Assembly (NCBI GenBank): GCA_021783455.1
Contig: JAJXTW010000001.1
Span: 1 to 45,460, forward strand
DNA length: 45,460 bases
Direction of reading: 5' to 3'
From: Nitrospirota bacterium
GTDB taxonomy: Bacteria; Nitrospirota; UBA9217
In this document: one piece after another, positions 2,720 to 30,551 of the stretch
How positions within the stretch are numbered: position 1 is the stretch's first letter
Layout of the letters: each line of letters starts with the position of its first letter
Translations under genes and position numbers: made by a program
Notes under the pieces: generated by a model
What the model was told of the DNA's origin: nothing
The model's database searches: none
The model's input: the letters and a program-made list of their open reading frames with translations, nothing else

Positions 2720-3220
2720 TCAGCAGGCCACGCCACAGGCTTGCCTGGTCATGGTCACAATCGGCCGCGAAGCAGTCCGGACAAGCCGGTTCAGATCCTT
2801 GGATGAAACCGTGTCGCTCCCGGTCACCGCAGGGCTTAGGACCACCTTGTCGATCCCTGCATGGTTCTTCAGGAACGCCCTGATTCCCGATACCACATCG
2901 AGATCGGTGTCCTGGGCGCTCACCTGGATTCCTTCCCTGCGGCATTTTTCAACGAGCCCGGCAAGCACTTTTTCATAACGTCCTTCCGCGCCGTCGGAAC
3001 CGTTTTGCATGATCTCGCGTGCCGTCTCATGTTCATCGGCTTCAGCAAAACTCACCGCTGTCATCAGGTTTCCAAGCTTGTCCATGAGGTTGCTCTTCTT
3101 CTGGACCAGCAGAAGCGTGATGTCCTCGTACATCGCTTTGGCCAGCTCGATGGCGTAAGAAACGCCTTCTTCGAGATTCTCATCACGGTACGTGACAAAC
3201 AATAACTGTCTCTTTCCCAT
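2720..3220 (-). CDS. USP-like (adenine-nucleotide alpha-hydrolase fold) hypothetical protein
   Basis: 166-aa ORF with an AAGGAGG Shine-Dalgarno 6 nt upstream of the ATG. It has a USP-like alternation of hydrophobic strands (LLFVTY, ITLLLV, KVVLSP, PIVTM) but no clear ATP-loop motif. It is the first gene behind the sigma-54 promoter. Confidence 0.55.
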   Translation of the reverse strand: MGKRQLLFVTYRDENLEEGVSYAIELAKAMYEDITLLLVQKKSNLMDKLGNLMTAVSFAEADEHETAREIMQNGSDGAEGRYEKVLAGLVEKCRREGIQVSAQDTDLDVVSGIRAFLKNHAGIDKVVLSPAVTGSDTVSSKDLNRLVRTASRPIVTMTRQACGVAC

Positions 3221-3259
3221 TTCCGCCTCCTTATACTGTGCTTCTATGACCAGTAATAT

Positions 3260-3275
3260 AGCAATGCTGATGCCA
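3260..3275 (-). promoter_or_regulatory. sigma-54 (RpoN) -24/-12 promoter
   Basis: The reverse strand reads TGGCAT-cagca-TTGCT, matching the consensus TGGCAC-N5-TTGCW with correct GG/GC spacing. It lies about 40 nt upstream of the ATG at 3220. Two sigma-54-dependent activators are encoded in the same window. Confidence 0.55.
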
Positions 3276-3310
3276 TAAGATAATGCACTGTTTTCATTAG
3301 ATAATTAAAT

Positions 3311-3373
3311 ATGAACTCACAATGATACTGTTTCATATATGAACTGTCATGGAACACAATGGCAGGTATGAAC
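3311..3373. promoter_or_regulatory. candidate enhancer (UAS) array: ATGAAC half-sites including the 12-bp palindrome TTCATATATGAA
   Basis: ATGAAC occurs at 3311-3316 and 3368-3373. A perfect palindrome TTCATATATGAA lies at 3332-3343. The array sits 40-110 bp upstream of the sigma-54 promoter, where bEBP sites normally lie. Confidence 0.3.
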
Positions 3374-3632
3374 AGAGAGGAATGATGGGGTAAATTTTGC
3401 TTACCCCCTTTGTTTGCAGGCATTAAATGCGTTTATACCTGCGGATATTATCTCGTTGGGAAATCATGGAAACGGTTATGAAGAACGTTTAAATATGGAA
3501 CATAAAACTGTTTTGCATTTTTAAAATTATCTGGTAGCATGATCGCGAATAAAAAGCTGTCATAAAAGATATTTGATAAGGGATAACGGCATTTTTTTAA
3601 AACGTTGCTCCTTTAGGGAGTGAACTAGAACT

Positions 3633-4244
3633 ATGGCGGAAGGCAATAACCCCGGCGAGGACAAGGCATGGGAGATTCTATCAATACGAAATCCTGAAGA
3701 GGTCTGCAGGGCAGCGTCCATTGCCTATGATGCCGCGGCAGGAATATATCGGGTAACGTCATTCAACATGGAAGTCGCTGTCGACGTGAAGAACAGGGCT
3801 ATCACGAGTTCCGCGCCCGGAAGTGAGGTGCTGCTGAAGCGGTTAAGTTATTTCTTTAAGCTGTCGGCTCTTTGGTACCTGGTTAGTGCCAAGGATATCG
3901 ACTGCACCGGCAGGCCCGTGAAGCTCGACCATGTTAAAGGTGGGGATGCTTTTACACGGGGATCGCACGTCTTGCCGCTCGAGGGTATTGCGAACAAATA
4001 CGGAAGGAACAAGGAAGGATTTGTCGAAAAAGGAAAACAACTCGGTGGTGTGCTTGTGAAAAACGGCGATGTCTCAATCCGCTTCTCACCCCTGCCGCGG
4101 GTTCCGGTCACTTTAACACTCTGGCTTGAAGACGAGGAGTTTCCCGCCCGCGTGGATTTGTTGTTTGATTCCACCTGCGAATTACAGATACCGACAGACA
4201 TCATCTGGTCCATTGCGATGATGACCGCGCTGATAATACTGTGA
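3633..4244 (+). CDS. DUF3786-like protein
   Basis: 203 aa with an AGGGAG Shine-Dalgarno upstream. The C-terminal signature LTLWLEDEEFPARVDLLFDSTCE matches my recollection of the DUF3786 LW-GDEEFP / ILFD motif. A 7-bp hairpin (4245-4262) directly follows the stop. Confidence 0.55.
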   Translation: MAEGNNPGEDKAWEILSIRNPEEVCRAASIAYDAAAGIYRVTSFNMEVAVDVKNRAITSSAPGSEVLLKRLSYFFKLSALWYLVSAKDIDCTGRPVKLDHVKGGDAFTRGSHVLPLEGIANKYGRNKEGFVEKGKQLGGVLVKNGDVSIRFSPLPRVPVTLTLWLEDEEFPARVDLLFDSTCELQIPTDIIWSIAMMTALIIL

Positions 4245-4476
4245 AGGCAGCAAGAGCTGCCTGACTCATACCCCTGTTCGCTGTACTCATTCATCGCGCA
4301 GCACGGGCGAGAACGGATTGATATCAGTACTGCACAAACTCTTTTTCCCCGTCATCTCCCTTGCCGCCCGCTCTCAGGCCTAGGGTCACTCCCCCGAAGA
4401 CGGGTCGGAATTTCCGGCATAAGCCTGCAGTCGAAAGGCGAATCGCCTTGACCCGCTCCGGCGATGCAAGCATCCG

Positions 4477-4650
4477 TTACTTCTTTATATACTGGGGGTA
4501 AAGCCTCTGCATGCATTCAGGACAGATGCCGTGGCTGAATTCGGCCCCCGAGTGTTCGCTGATATATATTTCCAACGTGTTCCAGGAGCCCTTGTCATCC
4601 CTGATCTTCTTGCAGGAAGAACAGATCGGCAATACGCTCAGCGTCTTCAC
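4477..4650 (-). CDS. possible 57-aa Cys4/His zinc-ribbon mini-protein (GTG start) or orphaned C-terminal module
   Basis: The reverse frame is open from 4686 to the stop at 4477-4479 and contains no ATG. A GTG at 4650 would give MKTLSVLPICSSCKKIRDDKGSWNTLEIYISEHSGAEFSHGICPECMQRLYPQYIKK. The CxxCKKIRDD...FSHGICPEC motif is one I recognise from the C-termini of deltaproteobacterial sensory proteins. The Shine-Dalgarno is weak. Confidence 0.35.
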   Translation of the reverse strand: MKTLSVLPICSSCKKIRDDKGSWNTLEIYISEHSGAEFSHGICPECMQRLYPQYIKK

Positions 4651-5123
4651 CTCAAAACCGCGTCGCTCGTGCTGTTCAGGATGGCTTCATGGATGGAAAC
4701 GAATAGTTGCAAACTCACTCTCAACACCAATTAAATGTCACGGCAAGCAATCATACCAATTTAGGAAGGGGTGCGTCCTGAAAAAATCAGTAACAATAGC
4801 GTGGGAACTGTTCGAGGGTCTGGGAAGATCAACACTTACAAAAGTATGCCGGAAAGGAAACCGCCCATTTCCGGGCGTGCAGAACACCTTCGAAAAATAT
4901 TTTGGATGGATTCGGATTCGACAGAAAATGACCTGCGGTCTACAGGACTAACGGCTCCTCGCGCCAAATCACTGAAGAAGGGGCGTTTAGGCACACTTCT
5001 TCAGATACTATTTGCACAAGGAACCGTGGTGTGCCATTCGCATGGAGGCTCCCGTGTTTCAACCGTGACGGGCAGCCGCCGGGGACTTGATTTTAGTAAT
5101 CACCACAAGGTGCTCGCAGGGAC

Positions 5124-5312
5124 TTACTGGACGATGCTCTCCATCGTAACATTCAGATAGTCCGCCAGCTGTTTCACCGTCCGCGGTTTCATCGTTACTC
5201 CTTTGAGCGTCCTGGAAACCGTCACCTTATGAATACCCAGTTTGGCCGCAATTTCCGTATAGCTCAGTCCTTTTTCCAGCCGTTTTCTCTCGAGAACTTC
5301 AATCTTATACAT
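5124..5312 (-). CDS. small XRE-family helix-turn-helix transcriptional regulator
   Basis: 62 aa. The HTH segment LSYTEIAAKLGIHKVTVSRTLKG is present, and GAGGAGG lies upstream of the ATG. Confidence 0.7.
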   Translation of the reverse strand: MYKIEVLERKRLEKGLSYTEIAAKLGIHKVTVSRTLKGVTMKPRTVKQLADYLNVTMESIVQ

Positions 5313-5419
5313 GGTGTGTTCCTCCTCTTTCCGTTATATTTTTCTAATTTGTAATATGGCATATCGGTCAAAATCTGATCTTCCCACGCTGCCTCCCTGG
5401 TGAACCATTCGATGCTGAT

Positions 5420-5614
5420 TCATGTTTTTTGCTGCGGAATGCTCCATGGGATGGCATCTTCCTTTCCATATAAAAGTATGCCGCGAGACAGAGGACATTT
5501 TATGTAATGGGTGGAATTACAATATTCCTCAAGCTCGAATAAACTCGGGATATAGACCGCTCTATCTGCAGTACAAGACGCAATACGTGTATCGGAGAGA
5601 TGAGGGCATTTCAT
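5420..5614 (-). CDS. small Cys-rich hypothetical protein
   Basis: 64 aa: MKCPHLSD..IASC...LEEYCNSTHYIKCP. The four or five Cys are arranged as in small conserved hypothetical proteins of anaerobic delta-type genomes (from memory). The mirror ORF 5422..5616 on the plus strand is compositionally poorer. Confidence 0.4.
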   Translation of the reverse strand: MKCPHLSDTRIASCTADRAVYIPSLFELEEYCNSTHYIKCPLSRGILLYGKEDAIPWSIPQQKT

Positions 5615-5803
5615 AATTCTTACCTTCCGTTGCAGATTTCAACTGCCTGATGATAACTTGAGACATACGTTGCAATTAGCTTATCCTGAGAGAGCCAAAA
5701 AAGTAAGGGGAAAAAGCTTATTTTTTTGTAGGACCATTCTGTTTTATTTGTCAGAATATTCCTACACACCCTCCAAACTGAGTTTCCGAATTTTGGAAGC
5801 AGT

Positions 5804-6433
5804 TCAGATGAGTTTGTTCTCGATGACGTAACGGGTTATTCCCGCATTGCTCTTCATGCGCATTTTGGCGAGCAATCGGGTCCGATAGGTGCTGATAGTC
5901 TTTACGCTGAGCGATAATTCGTCCGCAATCTCTGTCAGTGTTTTCCCGCCGGCAAGCATGATCATAATCTGATACTCGCGGTCGGAAAGCTGTTCATGGA
6001 GCGGCTTATCCGAATAGTTTCCCAGCTTATGGGCGAGCCTCTCGGCAAGTGAAGAACTGATGTACTTTCCGCCCGACGATACCTTTCTGATGGCCGCAAT
6101 CAACTCGTCAGGTGCGCTTTCCTTGGTGAGATAGCCGGCGGCGCCGGAGCGAAGCGCCCGGATGGCGTATTGTTCTTCGGGGTACATGCTCAGCATAAGG
6201 ACGGCAAGTTTCGGCCGTTGATTTTTCAGCTCCTTCAACACCTCGAGTCCGTCCCTCCCGGGCATGGAGATGTCCAGCAAGATCAGATCGTAATCGTCCT
6301 TGCTTACTTTTTCCATCACTTCCTGTCCGTTCCGGGCTTCACCTGCCACGACGATATCGGGCATCTCGGCGATAATCTGCTCAATGCCTTTTCGGACGAT
6401 CACATGGTCATCTGCCACCAGCAATTTAATCAA
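5804..6433 (-). CDS. NarL/LuxR-family response regulator (REC + LuxR HTH)
   Basis: Contains LLVADDHVIVRKG...DLILLDISMPGRDG (receiver Asp) and a C-terminal LSDREYQIMIMLAGGKTLTEIADELSLSVKTISTYRTR. I place the start at the TTG at 6433, preceded by GGAGAGGGG 5 nt upstream. The track ORF extends to 6511 through an Arg-rich, non-receiver leader. Confidence 0.85.
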   Translation of the reverse strand: MIKLLVADDHVIVRKGIEQIIAEMPDIVVAGEARNGQEVMEKVSKDDYDLILLDISMPGRDGLEVLKELKNQRPKLAVLMLSMYPEEQYAIRALRSGAAGYLTKESAPDELIAAIRKVSSGGKYISSSLAERLAHKLGNYSDKPLHEQLSDREYQIMIMLAGGKTLTEIADELSLSVKTISTYRTRLLAKMRMKSNAGITRYVIENKLI

Positions 6434-6641
6434 CTCGTCCCCTCTCCTCACAGCCCCGGTACGGTGACGTTGGCGCCCGATCGGGGCCGGTTCCGATCGT
6501 CTGCTCCTCAACTTACCCTCCTCCTTGGCCGAGCTTACCGGATTGCATGGAACCGGTTCTCCCAGTCAATGTTCCATTCGTCCCTTCTCGTCGTACTCTT
6601 ACAAGGGATGTTTTTCTGACAGCATGTACGCGCGTAGGTAA

Positions 6642-6650
6642 ATTATAGCA
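6642..6650 (-). promoter_or_regulatory. extended -10 promoter element (TGcTATAAT)
   Basis: The reverse strand reads tTGcTATAATtt, a perfect -10 hexamer with an upstream TGn. It lies in the gap between the NtrC-type regulator stop (6696) and the LuxR-type regulator start (6433). No good -35 is present. Confidence 0.3.
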
Positions 6651-6695
6651 AACTTTGGAGATGACGTGTGTGAGGGAGAAGCCTGGGAAATCCGA

Positions 6696-8024
6696 TTAGT
6701 CCTTCAAAATTCGCCAGAGGCTCGTCCGCGAAATGCCGAGTACTTCCGCGGCTTTGGACTTATTGCCTCCGAGCATATCGATCACTTTTTCGGCATAATC
6801 CTTGTTCAGCTCTTCCATGGTCTTGATCTTGTCCGGCTCGATAGTCTCGATTTGAAACATTTTGATGGTCTGAGGCAGGCTCTCGGGCGTAATGAGGCCC
6901 GTTTTTTCGAGGATGATCGCTCGCTCAACGATGTTTTCGAGTTCACGAACATTCCCCGGATAGCTGTAGTGCATCAGGACGTCCATTGCATCCTTCGTAA
7001 ACCCCGTGATCTTTTTGCGCGAACTCGGCAGGTGCTTCTCCAGGAAGTAGCTGCAAAGCGGAGGAATATCGTCCCTGCGGTCGCGGAGGGGCGGAATAAA
7101 GATTTCCATGATGTTCAGCCGGTAGTACAGATCCTCCCGGAACCTGCCCTCGGCAATCACCTTACGCACGTTTTGGTTCGTCGCTGCGATGAAACGCACA
7201 TCGACCCTGATGGGCTTCGTCCCGCCCACGCGATAGAATTCTCCTTCTTCAATCACCTTGAGCAACTTGGCCTGAAGTCCCGGCGCCATCTCGGCGATCT
7301 CATCCAGAAACAGCGTGCCGGTATCGGCAATTTCCACAAGCCCCTGTTTCGTCTTGATCGCCCCGGTAAAAGCGCCCTTTTCATGGCCGAAAAGTTCGCT
7401 TGCCAGAAGTTCCTCTGTCAAGGTCGCGCAGTTGATCGAAAGAAAGGGCATGTCCTGCCGCCTGCTCGTGTAGTGGATGATCTTGGCCAGCAGGCTTTTG
7501 CCTACGCCCGTCTCGCCGGTCAGAAGCACGTTGCAGTCCGACTCCTTCATCCCTTCGATGATGCCGAGGATGTGGTGCATGCTCGAGCTTTTTGCAATGA
7601 TCGACACCTTCTTATCAATGCCGACATAGGCCTTGAGCGCAATGTTCTCCTTTTTGATCGTGCGCTGCTCGCGGATCTTCTTGACCTTCAAAAGGAGTTC
7701 GTCGAGGTTGAATGGCTTCGTAACGTAATCGTAGGCGCCCTTCTTCATCGCCTCGATCACGGAACCGATGCTGCCGAAGCCCGTAATGATGATCACCTCT
7801 ACGTCAGCCTGGCGTTCCCGGATTTTTTCGAGCAGTTCCATCCCCGTCATCCCGGGCATTTTGATATCGGTGATCAGCAGGTCGAAGTGGTCTTCCTCGA
7901 TCTTCCGAAATGCATCCAGTCCGTTTTGGGCCCCGACCGTCACATAGCCTTCCTTCTGGAGGGCGTTGGTCATGTGTTTGAGGGTTATTTCCTCGTCTTC
8001 GGCTATGAGAATCTTAAATGCCAT
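6696..8024 (-). CDS. sigma-54-dependent (NtrC-family) response regulator
   Basis: 442 aa. Features are the receiver (DLLITDIKMPGMTG), the AAA+ domain with Walker A GETGVGKS, the sigma-54 contact loop GAFTGA, and a C-terminal Fis-type HTH (KSKAAEVLGISRTSLWRILK). Confidence 0.95.
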   Translation of the reverse strand: MAFKILIAEDEEITLKHMTNALQKEGYVTVGAQNGLDAFRKIEEDHFDLLITDIKMPGMTGMELLEKIRERQADVEVIIITGFGSIGSVIEAMKKGAYDYVTKPFNLDELLLKVKKIREQRTIKKENIALKAYVGIDKKVSIIAKSSSMHHILGIIEGMKESDCNVLLTGETGVGKSLLAKIIHYTSRRQDMPFLSINCATLTEELLASELFGHEKGAFTGAIKTKQGLVEIADTGTLFLDEIAEMAPGLQAKLLKVIEEGEFYRVGGTKPIRVDVRFIAATNQNVRKVIAEGRFREDLYYRLNIMEIFIPPLRDRRDDIPPLCSYFLEKHLPSSRKKITGFTKDAMDVLMHYSYPGNVRELENIVERAIILEKTGLITPESLPQTIKMFQIETIEPDKIKTMEELNKDYAEKVIDMLGGNKSKAAEVLGISRTSLWRILKD

Positions 8025-24725: not shown

Positions 24726-25256
24726 TCAGTCCTGGTTGTCGACGATAAGACGCGCCTGCTGCAAGAGCCTGAAGGTCATATTTTTTGCTTCGTTTGCCTT
24801 GAGTTCGTAGATCTTTTCCCGGCATTTCATAAAAAGATCGAATGAAAAAAGCGCCAGGTCGTCGACAGCGGACTCAAAGACTGCCAGTTCTTCGGCAATT
24901 CCCTGTTGACCGAGAATCTCTTTTCCCAGCTCCTGCCGGACCACTTTCTTGAGTTGAAAGATGAAAGACACGGCCTCGGATGGCGAAAATTCCTGAATAG
25001 CACGGATCCGGATAATGCTGTCGAGAAACCGGGAAACAGTGTCGGGAATCATTCCCTGCAGCAGCGCGTCGAAAAGATGCTCGATTCCCTCCGAAAGGGT
25101 ATAACCGACCGGATTGGTGAACTGGGCCTTCTGCTTCCTCAGGAAAGTAGACGTCTCGTGCGGATAAGTCTCCACAACGGCATCAAACCATTTCTTCAGA
25201 ATAGCGGATTTCTTTTCTATCAAATAGTGGTTAAGGTTCATGTTCCCGTGAATCAT
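24726..25256 (-). CDS. dsrT: DsrT-like helical protein (RsbRD_N-type domain)
   Basis: About 176 aa, starting MIHGNMNLNHYLIEKKSAILKKWFDAVVETYP.., which is the RsbRD N-terminal-like pattern. It sits directly upstream of dsrM, as dsrT does in other dsr loci (from memory). I place the start at the ATG at 25256; the track uses the TTG at 25274. Confidence 0.55.
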   Translation of the reverse strand: MIHGNMNLNHYLIEKKSAILKKWFDAVVETYPHETSTFLRKQKAQFTNPVGYTLSEGIEHLFDALLQGMIPDTVSRFLDSIIRIRAIQEFSPSEAVSFIFQLKKVVRQELGKEILGQQGIAEELAVFESAVDDLALFSFDLFMKCREKIYELKANEAKNMTFRLLQQARLIVDNQD

Positions 25257-25298
25257 ACGCAAGCACCCCTGCAACGATTGTCGCAGGGGAATATCCTG

Positions 25299-26143: not shown

Positions 26144-26446
26144 CTATAGCCAGGCCGTCTTTTCGTAATCATTCATGATCAGGTCGACGATGTCGCCGTA
26201 ACTGACTATTTTTACTTTTGAATTGACATTCGCGGCTGTGAACCCTCGTGTCGTCAGATCGTCGGACAATACGTAAAAGTTCGCACCGGATTTGGAAAGC
26301 ACAGGGGAATCCTTGCCGTTCTCTTTCACGACAGCATGATAGACGCCGTTCCCCACAAGGATCACTCCCATTTTTTCGGCCTTCATTCTTTCAAAGCTGT
26401 CTTCTGTTCTTCTCCAGTCGCTTAGAAATACCGCTAGTTTCATCAT
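26144..26446 (-). CDS. DsrH/TusB-like protein
   Basis: 100 aa. It contains VILVGNGVY and FYVLSDDLTTRGF and has a C-terminal ..KTAWL typical of TusB/DsrH. There is no Cys in the whole protein. GGGGAGGTGAG lies upstream. Confidence 0.65.
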   Translation of the reverse strand: MMKLAVFLSDWRRTEDSFERMKAEKMGVILVGNGVYHAVVKENGKDSPVLSKSGANFYVLSDDLTTRGFTAANVNSKVKIVSYGDIVDLIMNDYEKTAWL

Positions 26447-26472
26447 CTCACCTCCCCAGAGAAATTCATGAT

Positions 26473-26508
26473 AAAAAAACAGGGGATTAGTTATTCAACT
26501 ATCCCCTG
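26473..26508 (-). terminator. intrinsic terminator after ferredoxin copy 2
   Basis: The reverse strand reads CAGGGGAT-(13-nt loop)-ATCCCCTG followed by T7. The T-run ends only 26 nt before the DsrH-like ATG (26446). Confidence 0.7.
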
Positions 26509-26530
26509 GGTATGACTGCTCGTTACCGCA

Positions 26531-26716
26531 TTATATCTCGGCAACCGTGATCGCCTGCTGCGGACAGTTCTCAGCGCAGGTCAGGCAATTAATGCATTCC
26601 GACATGTTCACCGGCTCGGCCTTACCGCCGTCCAGTTTAAACACAGACTGCGGACAGACGTTGACGCAGGTGCCGTCACCATCGCATTTCCCTTTGTCGA
26701 CTGTTACCATGTACAT
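26531..26716 (-). CDS. small 7-Cys ferredoxin, CxxDxxC type (copy 2)
   Basis: 61 aa, identical to copy 1 at 57 of 61 residues (differences E29D, Q45L, V48A, N59A). GAGGAGGAAG lies upstream. Confidence 0.9.
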   Translation of the reverse strand: MYMVTVDKGKCDGDGTCVNVCPQSVFKLDGGKAEPVNMSECINCLTCAENCPQQAITVAEI

Positions 26717-26925
26717 GGTGATTACTTCCTCCTCACAATTACATTAGATACGCGAGCCTGCCGTTTTTCCCTTGAACCCAAGCGCTGCGCGTTTCAACAG
26801 CCCGGTGGTTGGGGCAGACCGCAGGGATTCGGCAGAGGTCTCTACCGGCATCGAGAAATCATCCGGCACGCTGCATTTTTGTAAATCCCTGCATGGGCGG
26901 GGCAGGGGATCAAGCGGAGCAGATA

Positions 26926-27261
26926 CTATACGCAACCGGTCGGCTTCGGAAGACCGGCAATTTTGCAAGCCTGCTTTGCAGGTCCGCCCGGATAGAGTTC
27001 ATAGAGATACTTGGTGTTGCCTTTTTCCGGCCCAAGCTTCTTGCCGATTTCCTTCACCAGGATTTTGATCATCGGCGCAATCTGATACTGTTTGTAATAG
27101 TCGCGGAGGAAATTCACAACTTCCCAATGCTGCTCGCTCATGTCAATGCCTTCAACCTCCGCAAAGTACTTGGCGACGTCCATGTTCCAGTCGTCCAGAT
27201 TAGCCAAGAAGCCATCCTCATCCACTTCGATATTCTTACCTTTTACTGAAATTGTTCCCAT
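26926..27261 (-). CDS. dsrC: DsrC (sulfite reductase-associated, two C-terminal redox Cys)
   Basis: 111 aa: GFLANLDDWNMDVAKYFA...HWEVVNFLRDYY...ACKIAGLPKPTGCV. Both conserved C-terminal-arm cysteines are present. Confidence 0.95.
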   Translation of the reverse strand: MGTISVKGKNIEVDEDGFLANLDDWNMDVAKYFAEVEGIDMSEQHWEVVNFLRDYYKQYQIAPMIKILVKEIGKKLGPEKGNTKYLYELYPGGPAKQACKIAGLPKPTGCV

Positions 27262-27380
27262 TTTCCTGTCCCCTTTCGTTAAATTAGTCGGGTGCCTTCC
27301 AGCTCCCTCATCATGATGTTCCCAGCTTCTGTCCTGACTTCCCTTATGATTTGCCCTCTAAAATCCGGCGCTGCAGCCTG

Positions 27381-27746
27381 TTATGCAGGTTTCCGTTTCA
27401 CTTTCAAAAAATACAGCCGTCCATCTCCATCCATAAACCCCCGGCTGATGCCGGTAGAACGGTGTGTCCGCAGGTCGTAATTGAGCACTGCATCTTCGTA
27501 GTCTTCTCCGGCAACCATATCTGACAGGTCTTTTCCAATCTGATCCGCTGCCAGGGCGAGAGCCTGCATCATCACTTCTCCCACATTCTTGCTCGTGGGG
27601 TCCGCGATGTAGAATGCGCCACAGACGGCGCACGTGCCGCCCGATATGCTTTCCATGGTGCTTATTTTGATCGTCGCCGGGCGTTCGAACTTTGTCCGAC
27701 AAAACGGACAAACGGGTTCAACTCCTTCTCGTGCTCCAGACCTCAA
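27381..27746 (-). CDS. hypothetical Cys4 zinc-ribbon protein between dsrN and dsrC
   Basis: The ORF is open from 27821. The first start that does not overlap dsrN is the TTG at 27746 (about 121 aa). It contains CPFC-x27-CAVC, then an acidic helical region and a C-terminal GRLYFLKVKRK. I recognise no family. Confidence 0.5.
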   Translation of the reverse strand: MRSGAREGVEPVCPFCRTKFERPATIKISTMESISGGTCAVCGAFYIADPTSKNVGEVMMQALALAADQIGKDLSDMVAGEDYEDAVLNYDLRTHRSTGISRGFMDGDGRLYFLKVKRKPA

Positions 27747-27760
27747 AAATACCTGCTTTC

Positions 27761-29155
27761 TTATGCGCGGTGTTTCCGTGCATGATGTTCCTCTGCCCTT
27801 TTCACCATAGCAGGAGCCCATTCTGGCGTGCCCACGGCATGCAGATGCGTATAGGAAGCCAACACATTCTTATACACGATGCCGTCGTTCTTCCCGTCTA
27901 TCCCGCTGCCTCGTGCGACATGATACGCCATCGGCGGCAGTGCGTCAAGATTTGAAACCCGTGAATAATGAAATTCATGCCCGCGAATGCCCACTCCGCT
28001 GCCGAGGAATGGGCTGTTGCGTCCGGTTTCTAATACCGTGTATCCATGCGCTTGCGGTCGTTTCTCAAGGATAAAATCGAGCGGCAATACCGCAGCCATG
28101 GCATATCGTTTACCTTCTGCAGTAAGGCTTCGGCCGAGATAGATCAGGCCGCCGCACTCGGCATAAATGGGCAAGCCATTTTCTGCGGCGTTTCTTACTG
28201 AGGCGCAAAACCCCCCATTTGCGGCCAGTTCTGCGGCCTGTGTCTCGGGAAATCCGCCGCCGATGTAGAGAGCATCGATATCATCGGGCAGCAGTCCGTC
28301 TTTTAAAGCGTTTATTTCCTTGAGAACCGCTCCGTGTCGCTCAAGCTCCTCGAGATTGTCCGGGTAGTAGAATTGAAATGCCTTGTCCCTTACTACACCG
28401 ATAACGACCCGCTTTCCTTCCGGAGGTAGCTCTGATTGTTCGTTTCTTAGGCTCTCAATCTCCGGTGCGGTACAAGCCATTTCCCAGATTGCATCAAGAT
28501 CGAGATATTGCTCGGCGATTGCCGCCGAAGCTTGAATCGCCTGTTCTACTTCGGGGTGTTCGTGAAACGGCGTCAATCCCATATGTCGTTCGGGAAATTC
28601 GCCATGCCGTTGTTTGGGAACGGCACCAAAAACGGGAAGGCCGCTGCTCCCCGCGATGGCCTTCCTGATGACGTTTTCATGACGTCCTGATGAAACGTTG
28701 TTTAAAATGATTCCGCCGATTGCAACATCGGCATCATACTGTTGCAGTCCCAGAACAACCGCCGCAACTGTCGCCGACGCCTTCGTGCCGTCTACGATCA
28801 AAGCAACAGGTGTCTTCAGCAGTTTTGACAACCGGGCCGTACTGTATGATCCTGATTCATCAACTCCGTCATATAGCCCGCGATTGCCTTCGATGATCGC
28901 AGCATCTACTCCGGCTGCATGTTCCACAAACGACTTGCGAATGCGGTCCTGATCCATCATAAACAGATCAAGATTGTAACAGGACCTGCCTGCAGCAACT
29001 CCGAGCCAGCCAGCATCGATAAAGTCCGGGCCTTTCTTAAAAACAGCAATCTGCCGGCCCTTGTTCCGCCAGGCTGCAGTTATGCCGATCGAGAAAGTTG
29101 TCTTTCCCAGACCGCCGCGGGTGGCTGAGATTGCCAGCCTCGGGATAGCCTGCAT
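27761..29155 (-). CDS. dsrN: DsrN (cobyrinic acid a,c-diamide synthase family; sirohaem amidase)
   Basis: 464 aa. It has a CbiA N-terminal P-loop (ISATRGGLGKTTFSIG) and a C-terminal glutamine amidotransferase domain (YAECGGLIYL, GHEFHYS). The TAATG junction links it to dsrD. Confidence 0.9.
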   Translation of the reverse strand: MQAIPRLAISATRGGLGKTTFSIGITAAWRNKGRQIAVFKKGPDFIDAGWLGVAAGRSCYNLDLFMMDQDRIRKSFVEHAAGVDAAIIEGNRGLYDGVDESGSYSTARLSKLLKTPVALIVDGTKASATVAAVVLGLQQYDADVAIGGIILNNVSSGRHENVIRKAIAGSSGLPVFGAVPKQRHGEFPERHMGLTPFHEHPEVEQAIQASAAIAEQYLDLDAIWEMACTAPEIESLRNEQSELPPEGKRVVIGVVRDKAFQFYYPDNLEELERHGAVLKEINALKDGLLPDDIDALYIGGGFPETQAAELAANGGFCASVRNAAENGLPIYAECGGLIYLGRSLTAEGKRYAMAAVLPLDFILEKRPQAHGYTVLETGRNSPFLGSGVGIRGHEFHYSRVSNLDALPPMAYHVARGSGIDGKNDGIVYKNVLASYTHLHAVGTPEWAPAMVKRAEEHHARKHRA

Positions 29156-29391
29156 TACGATTGAGGATTGGCCGAACCTTCCGTGTGCGGGATCTCGACA
29201 GCAGTACCGCCGAAGTATGAATAGACAAGCTTGCCGCCGTCTATCAGCTCACGAAGAGCGGCTTTCACCTCTTCTTTTGTCGCGCCCTCGGCCTCCAGAG
29301 CATTGCTGATGTCCTTGGGCTTCAGCTTCTTTTTGCCCTGCATCTTTTCCACCATCTCATATACTTTTTTCTGCACTTCCGCAGCGTCCAT
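29155..29391 (-). CDS. dsrD: DsrD (small winged-helix protein of reductive dsr loci)
   Basis: 78 aa and Lys-rich (GKKKLKPKDISNAL), with ..GKLVYSYFGGTAVE resembling the DsrD ..EYWSSGSTT region. It sits directly after dsrB. Confidence 0.8.
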   Translation of the reverse strand: MDAAEVQKKVYEMVEKMQGKKKLKPKDISNALEAEGATKEEVKAALRELIDGGKLVYSYFGGTAVEIPHTEGSANPQS

Positions 29392-29424
29392 AGTCGTCCT
29401 CCAGGTGAGTTGTATACAACATGT

Positions 29425-29457
29425 AAACCGGCCCCGGATTCATCCAGGGCCGGTTTT
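29425..29457 (-). other. intercistronic GC-rich stem-loop between dsrB and dsrD
   Basis: AACCGGCCC-(12-nt loop)-GGGCCGGTT, a 9-bp perfect stem. On the coding (reverse) strand only TTT follows it. Confidence 0.5.
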
Positions 29458-29477
29458 ATATTACACCTTTTACACCA

Positions 29478-30551
29478 TTATTCCCACTTGAACGTCGGAG
29501 TCATTCTGAATGTATCGCGAGCAAAGGTGAAATCGTCAATGTGCTGATAGGTGAACGGGATGCCGGTGAGCTTGAAGAACCGCTCCCAGCCGATACGCTC
29601 GATCCATTCGCCCATACGCTCGTGCTTGCGCGCATCCTTTGCGTAGACCTCCACGATGTGCTTCACCGCCTGCACAACCTCGGGCCAGCGGGGCGGATTG
29701 TTCGGGAGAAAAGGGATGGCCAGCTTGGACATGCGAGGCACGCCGCGGGCGTTCGAAACCTTGCCGCCCACATAGATGGAGATGCCGTCGCCGTGAGCAT
29801 CGGCCAGGGGGAGCGAGGGGCACATGGTATAGCAGTTGCCGCAGTACATGCAGCGCTCTTCTTTGATCTTGACCGACTTCGCTGCCGGGTTAGGCGCAAT
29901 AGCGCCGGTCGGGCAGGAAGCGATGGTCGTTGGGATCTCGCACTGGTTCGCAATGGTCGCTTCGTTCACCTTCGGGGGCTTGCGGTGAATGCCGAGGATG
30001 GCGATGTCGGAGCAATGCACCGCGCCGCACATGTTAAGGCAGCAGGCCAGGGCGATCCTGACGCGCGCCGGCAGAGTCTTGGTGGTGAAATACTCATGGA
30101 GTTCATCCATGACGGCCTTCACCACACCCGAAGCGTCGGTTGCAGGAGTGTGGCAGTGGATCCAACCCTGGGTATGCACCACATTGCTGATGCCGTATCC
30201 GATGCCGCCGACGAGGTGTCCGTCCTTCTTGAGCGCTGTCTTGAGCGGCTCGACCTGGTCCTTCGCAGGAAAGAATTCGACGTTGTGACGGGTCGTCCAA
30301 CGCAGATGGCCGCCGCTGAATTTGTCGGCGTACGCGCACATCTCGCGAACGTAATCGGTGCTGACGAGACGGGGTGTTGCTATGCGCACGGTGTACAGTT
30401 CGTCTCCGGTCTCGGAAACGTGCTTCATCGTGCCTTTATCGATAACTTCATGATATTTCCATTTCCCGTAGTTTTTTGCGATCACGGGAGGCAAAAATTT
30501 GCTAAAGTGAGGAGCTCCAATATCAGTTATTCTCTTCGGTTTGTCAGCCAT
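29478..30551 (-). CDS. dsrB: dissimilatory sulfite reductase beta subunit
   Basis: 357 aa. Features are [32 protein letters not shown] and a ferredoxin insert ([18 protein letters not shown]). Confidence 0.95.

Follow-up and report, generated by a model that had tools for sequence, protein, structure and literature searches.

A Cys4 protein family encoded beside dsrC in Nitrospirota, its HEAT-repeat partner and a putative accessory role in dissimilatory sulfite reduction

The sulfur cycle has dissimilatory sulfite reduction among its core processes, and the set of accessory proteins that serve this pathway is still being established. The stretch of DNA analysed here (45,460 nucleotides (nt) of a Nitrospirota bacterium of the lineage UBA9217; GenBank assembly GCA_021783455.1, contig JAJXTW010000001.1, positions 1 to 45,460; hereafter ‘the window’) carries on its minus strand a dsr locus in which the interval between dsrN and dsrC is filled by an open reading frame (ORF) that a preliminary description, made from the letters alone, could assign to no named Dsr protein. 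What does this frame encode, and does its product belong to the pathway? We label the 121-amino-acid (aa) Cys4 protein that it specifies X (gene 27381..27746, minus strand). By sequence comparison X is the stand-alone form of an undescribed domain, which elsewhere is mostly fused to (or encoded beside) a HEAT-repeat protein of the DVU0298 family. We consider it very nearly certain that the gene, the family and its linkage to dsr genes are real.

A search of 5.8 billion proteins returned 95 homologues of X (E 1e-69 to 1e-16), all carried as ‘hypothetical’ and mainly derived from metagenome-assembled genomes (MAGs) of Nitrospirota, and a profile search of 1.84 billion representatives gathered 189 clusters at E <= 1e-3, a number small enough for the family to be called compact. 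The ratio of nonsynonymous to synonymous substitutions (dN/dS, Nei-Gojobori) between the window copy and its relatives lies at 0.06-0.26, for proteins that are 56-97% identical and synonymous sites that are often saturated. The preliminary description had allowed that the interval might prove a non-coding spacer, and the homologues, the conserved start (see below) and this purifying selection answer in favour of a gene. Furthermore, contigs about 96% alike, assembled from three libraries of one mine-drainage study that had been depleted of ribosomal RNA, align to 27616-27946 (bridging the dsrN stop and the start of X) and to 27274-27560 (from the 3' half of X to 13 nt before dsrC); such matches record presence in RNA libraries and are not proof of transcription. 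A close relative thus lives in a mine-drainage habitat, where the dsr locus is probably transcribed. Within window positions 26400-29500 the contigs of these libraries cover dsrC, X and parts of dsrN and dsrD. In the window's family, two genomes hold matches to X that are stop-broken or split in two (G209:C4:360196-360553 and G239:C6:2056187-2056514), which may be decayed copies or assembly errors.

The outline of the frame (27381-27821, minus strand, same strand as dsrN and dsrC, 121-146 aa) had been given correctly, as had the overlap of 61 nt with dsrN for the ATG form and its absence for the TTG form. From ATG 27821 the frame runs to 146 aa and from TTG 27746 to 121 aa, with a TAA stop at 27383-27381; the in-frame extension between the two starts (27747..27821, minus strand) lies largely within dsrN and outside the conserved protein. 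An alignment of 30 loci from the taxonomic family of the window shows the start as TTG 21 times, as GTG eight times and as ATG once; full-length homologues begin at the window's TTG column with M, L or V as first residue, and most of these loci have an in-frame stop 5-10 codons 5' of it, which makes the 146-aa form impossible there. As the extension is absent or stop-closed in most of the 30, we rejected the ATG form, and on these alignments X starts at TTG 27746 and not at ATG 27821. With this start the spacer between dsrN and X measures 14 nt and contains a Shine-Dalgarno-like GAAAGCAGG (27752..27760, minus strand), 5 nt 5' of the TTG and abutting the dsrN stop (27763-27761), which probably couples the translation of X to that of dsrN. 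A motif of this kind (GAAAGCAGG, GAAGGCAGG or GGAGGCGGG) stands 5-7 nt before the start in the 30 related loci. A scan for promoters and terminators near X gave no signal above shuffled background.

How closely is X tied to dsr genes? We searched 401 genomes, drawn evenly from Nitrospirota, for X and DsrB (this being the only phylum sampled evenly; Bacillota records come from a search for related loci), and found X in 175 and DsrB in 207. The families that lack DsrB gave no X (0/76, 0/28, 0/40 and 0/7), and nearly all of those that carry it have X as well: X versus DsrB stood at 52/63 versus 57/63 in family f1 and at 31/35 versus 33/35 in f11, and the DsrB-bearing families f16 (14/14), f18 (9/9), f23 (7/7) and f27 (9/9) possess X throughout. 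When 20 loci from different families were mapped with the window's Dsr proteins, X (or an X-HEAT module) immediately preceded dsrC on its own strand in 17, and in 13 it also followed dsrN. In five of the 17, dsrABDN is not adjacent and X is still found with dsrC-dsrT-dsrMK; in one, a fusion sits between dsrAB and dsrN on the opposite strand. A second set of loci, built from the alignment of the X-HEAT fusion and therefore biased to the HEAT domain, keeps X or X-HEAT in order upstream of dsrC in 25 of its 27 X-bearing members. Among Bacillota, the fusion adjoins dsrAB in Desulfocucumis palustris and in a Peptococcaceae MAG, the latter with dsrMK-dsrC alongside. Of its two neighbours it is dsrC, and not dsrN, that stays with X most steadily. 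The question raised at the outset, whether homologues are dsr-linked, is answered in the affirmative by the co-occurrence with DsrB and by the place beside dsrC, both of which extend beyond one lineage; the word ‘inserted’, on the other hand, has to be given up, since Nitrospirota dsr loci as a rule carry this gene, which is no peculiarity of the window genome.

The four cysteines of X form two knuckles, CPFC at residues 13-16 (27699..27710, minus strand) and CAVC at residues 39-42 (27621..27632, minus strand), and all four are invariant across 21 diverse members of the family, so that the two-knuckle Cys4 module first noticed in the bare sequence holds; the pair had been rightly seen, its spacing had not (22 residues, not 27). 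Comparison of 30 close and 21 diverse members gave invariant positions that include C13, C16, C39, C42, G37, G43, Y46, D49, G56 and L63. The first knuckle reads CPFC in all 51 (outside this set, CLFC in the Thermodesulfovibrio fusion and CAFC in one further homologue). The second, which is CxxC for the window's family and CxC for most other lineages, is followed by G-A-x-Y-x-x-D-x-T/S-G/S-x-N-x-G-E and then by a helix. An AlphaFold2 model from a 30-row alignment (predicted local distance difference test score, pLDDT, 79.7; predicted template-modelling score, pTM, 0.72) places both knuckles, the first on a beta-hairpin, in a three-stranded ribbon, with strands 24-27, 33-38 and 45-49 surrounding them (pLDDT 82-90 there), after which come a helix (55-70) and another three strands. 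With four conserved putative ligand cysteines in two knuckles, and with these knuckles predicted on the beta-hairpins of a small sheet, X is, going by the model, an N-terminal Cys4 zinc-ribbon-like module (CPFC...CxxC) joined to a small alpha/beta domain. The prediction makes a beta-strand (residues 83-91) of the segment GEDYEDAVLNYD, earlier taken for an acidic helix; the helix of the model is the one at 55-70. Neither Pfam nor NCBIfam matched X above cut-off, the one weak match that recurred was to a generic zinc ribbon, Lar_restr_allev, in eight of the 21 diverse members, a profile search of the PDB gave C2H2-finger noise only, and a protein atlas offered only unnamed Nitrospirota and Thermodesulfobacteriota clusters with scores below 0.9, which we treat as a lead only.

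Outside the window's family, the match to X often falls within an open frame of 330-380 aa, in which X is fused to a HEAT domain that matches the NCBIfam model NF045662 with 129-190 bits (Pfam HEAT_EZ and HEAT_2 match this part weakly). All arrangements were found: X-HEAT fusions, HEAT-X fusions, and separate neighbouring genes in either order. Cultured carriers of X-HEAT are Dissulfurispira thermophila (JZK55_23440, 355 aa) and Thermodesulfovibrio (324 aa). The latter has the fusion gene flanked by dsrN and dsrC, at the beginning of a complete 2.0-Mb chromosome, and this fits Table 2 of an earlier study (PMC5812927), which passes from THEYE_A0001 to A0003. The fusion was modelled with a pLDDT of 87.4 and a pTM of 0.81, with a disordered linker at 110-134, and in Foldseek its HEAT part resembled generic peptide-binding HEAT/ARM solenoids (such as importin-alpha and alphaRep). 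Three proteins of 550-583 aa (P0129, P0136 and P0139) carry X-HEAT with a C-terminal region like tetratricopeptide repeats. At one locus a 372-aa ORF (L039:7946-9064, minus strand) without Pfam or NCBIfam match overlaps the stop of the X-HEAT fusion, and used as a query it found no match in the window's genome; at another, in one lineage, a 123-aa ORF (L040:10927-11298, minus strand) lies between dsrN and a HEAT-X fusion.

In the window's lineage X stands alone between dsrN and dsrC (L046-L048), and the window's own genome (89% complete) gave no DVU0298-family match above cut-off. Five complete genomes of the family have one HEAT copy each; for two of them (G095 and G005) both positions are known, and there a distance of 65-265 kb separates it from the dsr locus. 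The HEAT copy was found directly upstream of dnaJ/cbpA-like, hspR-like MerR and clpB genes in three of three cases examined (L136:4901-5596, L137:4954-5658 and L138:5016-5681; neighbours named from N-terminal sequence only), a setting that hints at a chaperone-type role for that HEAT paralogue. In one Nitrospirota family that has dsrAB without X, a HEAT gene lies directly upstream of dsrA (L140:16739-17383 and L141:16558-17194), so that the HEAT gene is dsr-linked even without the Cys4 domain. HEAT-only genes also adjoin a 405-aa flavodiiron-like gene in five loci (L073, L080, L088, L119 and L131, at about 3000-7100 in each) of Nitrospirota, Deferribacteres-labelled and Desulfobacterales MAGs; those of L073 and L119 adjoin a multihaem cytochrome as well (neighbours again named from N-terminal sequence only).

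As regards the remainder of the locus, the minus strand of the window reads dsrA-dsrB-dsrD-dsrN-X-dsrC-ferredoxin, followed by three DsrH/E/F-like genes, dsrT and dsrMKJOP. Upstream of X lie dsrA (31750-30572), dsrB (30551-29478), dsrD (29391-29155, matching the DsrD family model) and dsrN (27761..29155), a sirohaem amidase homologue of CobB/CbiA plus GATase_3 type (PF07685, PF01656 and NF002204, the last with 436 bits). Downstream, dsrC (26926..27261; PF04358 1.6e-47, TIGR03342) begins 119 nt past the X stop and is followed by the ferredoxin gene (26716-26531) and by dsrT, which encodes an RsbRD_N domain protein (24726-25274, matching the RsbRD_N model); all of these are on the minus strand. 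In Pfam and NCBIfam the DsrC, DsrD, DsrH, DsrE and RsbRD_N (DsrT) models match these neighbouring genes and not X, which was likewise without a match to DsrEFH, DsrR or DsrS models and is, in keeping with what had been said at the outset, none of the named Dsr proteins.

What, then, might X do? HEAT/ARM solenoids bind extended peptides, and DsrC acts through a flexible C-terminal arm. Since the solenoid partner would be a binder of peptides, the steadiest neighbour is dsrC and the arm of DsrC is flexible, we favour an adaptor or assembly role. Under this proposal X would not be an enzyme, but the small subunit of a protein-binding module shared with the HEAT solenoid; the occurrence of domain fusions in both orders suggests that X and HEAT bind each other. 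The four cysteines would hold a structural metal (putatively, and most likely, zinc), and the module would act on DsrC or on a DsrAB-DsrC complex, for instance by holding or delivering DsrC. X may be made at a low level, its weak TTG/GTG start being conserved and its translation presumably coupled to that of dsrN, and in the window's lineage it would work by itself or together with a HEAT protein whose gene lies elsewhere. The explanation as a whole (gene, family, linkage and adaptor role) seems to us possible, with chances somewhat short of even, and the mechanism on DsrC or DsrAB is put forward tentatively. A wider version, in which X and the DVU0298-type HEAT protein form an unrecognised and widespread module for Dsr maturation or chaperoning (e.g. 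loading or protecting the C-terminal arm of DsrC), with stand-alone X as its minimal working part, we regard as rather doubtful.

Several observations weigh against the adaptor proposal or the evidence beneath it. The DsrB-bearing families f2, f3, f6 and f22, together with one genus of f1, gave no X match in the 401-genome search, so that X is not universally needed (the pieces examined from genomes with DsrB and without X show dsrAB-MK-C lacking dsrN, or HEAT-dsrABD). Two of the 20 mapped loci place X between argJ and def-fmt on a piece that contains no dsr gene. The occurrence of HEAT-only paralogues in unrelated settings means that the HEAT family is not dsr-specific; of the two partners, X is the more so. 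DNA carry-over is possible in the RNA libraries, and a Foldseek search of the X model against the PDB found no relative (best E 0.12, for scattered kinase lobes and secretion chaperones that we do not credit). Finally, the earlier term ‘dedicated accessory factor’ was read from gene position, and position fits DsrC, DsrAB or DsrN as client alike. The two loci with the argJ-like/def-fmt setting are L042:3103-3465 and L044:9788-10150, and both genomes carry dsrB on another contig.

The choice of DsrN as the partner leads to the rival that survives best, namely that X (with HEAT where present) takes sirohaem amide from DsrN and, as a tetrapyrrole chaperone, helps its insertion into apo-DsrAB. In the window and in three other loci (L031, L037 and L038) X or X-HEAT starts at the dsrN stop or a few bases from it, and these tight junctions suggest coupled translation; moreover, the HEAT partner, which one source calls a ‘PBS lyase HEAT domain protein’, weakly matches phycobilisome (PBS)-lyase HEAT repeats (PF03130, 1e-3) and CpeY (NF058505, 4e-4), and PBS-lyase HEAT proteins and CpeY handle bilins. 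These matches, however, are far below cut-off and generic to HEAT repeats, as are the solenoids returned by Foldseek, X stays with dsrC and has dsrN elsewhere in the five mapped loci mentioned above, and the locus of the window's lineage has no HEAT gene at all. We consider this cofactor route unlikely.

That X regulates dsrC, as a nucleic-acid-binding zinc ribbon tuning its transcription or translation, is improbable in our view. Nucleic-acid binding is common among zinc ribbons, X always stands on the 5' side of dsrC, with some 100-300 nt between them in which dsrC could have a promoter of its own, and X ends in a basic C-terminal tail (KVKRKPA); yet beyond the family this tail shows poor conservation, the promoter scan of the X-dsrC spacer did not rise above shuffled background, X contains no helix-turn-helix or other known DNA-binding domain, and its recurrent fusion with a HEAT solenoid speaks for binding between proteins. 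We judge very improbable a redox or sulfur-transfer role, by which a rubredoxin-like Fe(Cys)4 site or redox-active CxxC dithiols would pass electrons or sulfur to and from the cysteines of DsrC (as trisulfide or persulfide). Four invariant cysteines are indeed encoded beside DsrC, whose chemistry is thiol-based, CPFC is similar to CPxC active sites, and a 222-aa relative is labelled ‘glutaredoxin’ by one source; against this stand the lack of a match to any thioredoxin-fold or rubredoxin family, the predicted ribbon in place of a thioredoxin fold, and a second knuckle that may be CxC or CxxC, a variation that a structural metal site tolerates and that is unexpected for a dithiol site. The reading by which dsrN and dsrC are separated by an open spacer and no gene, for which the unusual TTG start is the sole point, is already refuted by the homologues, the start-codon comparison and the dN/dS values (protein identity of 60-95% is kept across a family despite saturated synonymous sites, and conservation of the domain extends to two phyla and to fused forms) and deserves practically no credence.

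Databases carry the gene as ‘hypothetical’ and its fused forms as ‘DVU0298 family’ or ‘HEAT repeat’ proteins; our literature search returned no paper that names the X gene, none with THEYE_A0002, and none of relevance for HEAT repeats together with dsrN or dsrC. X represents an accessory family not described before, within a pathway that is well known, and not a new kind of system. Its interest lies in its presence next to dsrC in nearly all sampled Nitrospirota dsr loci, those of the cultured Thermodesulfovibrio and Dissulfurispira included, and in the HEAT fusion, which supplies a concrete and testable partner. If X is needed for the function of DsrC or DsrAB, it would extend the pathway by one component and give genome surveys a marker gene; otherwise it would be a conserved hitch-hiker of the operon. 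Should the wider module reading be true, X would be a component missing from reconstitutions of dissimilatory sulfite reduction.

Among known systems, the DVU0298 family comes closest. The first ~110 residues of the fused relatives are homologous to X (38-41% identity, E 1e-15 to 1e-25), and the DVU0298-labelled fusions share with it the slot between dsrN and dsrC. The difference is that NF045662 models only the 213-position HEAT domain, which X lacks; X itself gave no match to this model (cut-off 75 bits). DVU0298 is without a published function in the literature searched, its tag being found in one paper, where it was apparently misused for carbon monoxide dehydrogenase. With generic zinc ribbons (Lar_restr_allev PF14354, the ECs_2282 CxxC family NF047912 and rubredoxin-like ribbons such as zf-ChsH2) X shares two beta-hairpin knuckles about 22 residues apart, the first of CPxC type; it differs in that its matches remain below the curated cut-offs (best 16.5 bits versus 37) and in that these families have no counterpart to its Y-x-x-D-x-T-G-x-N-x-G-E stretch, its helix and its C-terminal sheet. 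Papers on Nitrospirota dsr operons pass the gene over: for Candidatus Sulfobium, dsrN (480008) and dsrC (480005) both appear in Table 2 and Table S2 of PMC5812927, and the two genes that separate them do not. Like the small dsr accessory proteins DsrD, DsrT, DsrR and DsrS, X is small, lies within the dsr operon and is conserved with it, although it has no sequence relation to any of them and the window encodes DsrD and DsrT separately. DsrD, itself long without a known role, was shown in 2022 to activate DsrAB allosterically (PMC8794893).

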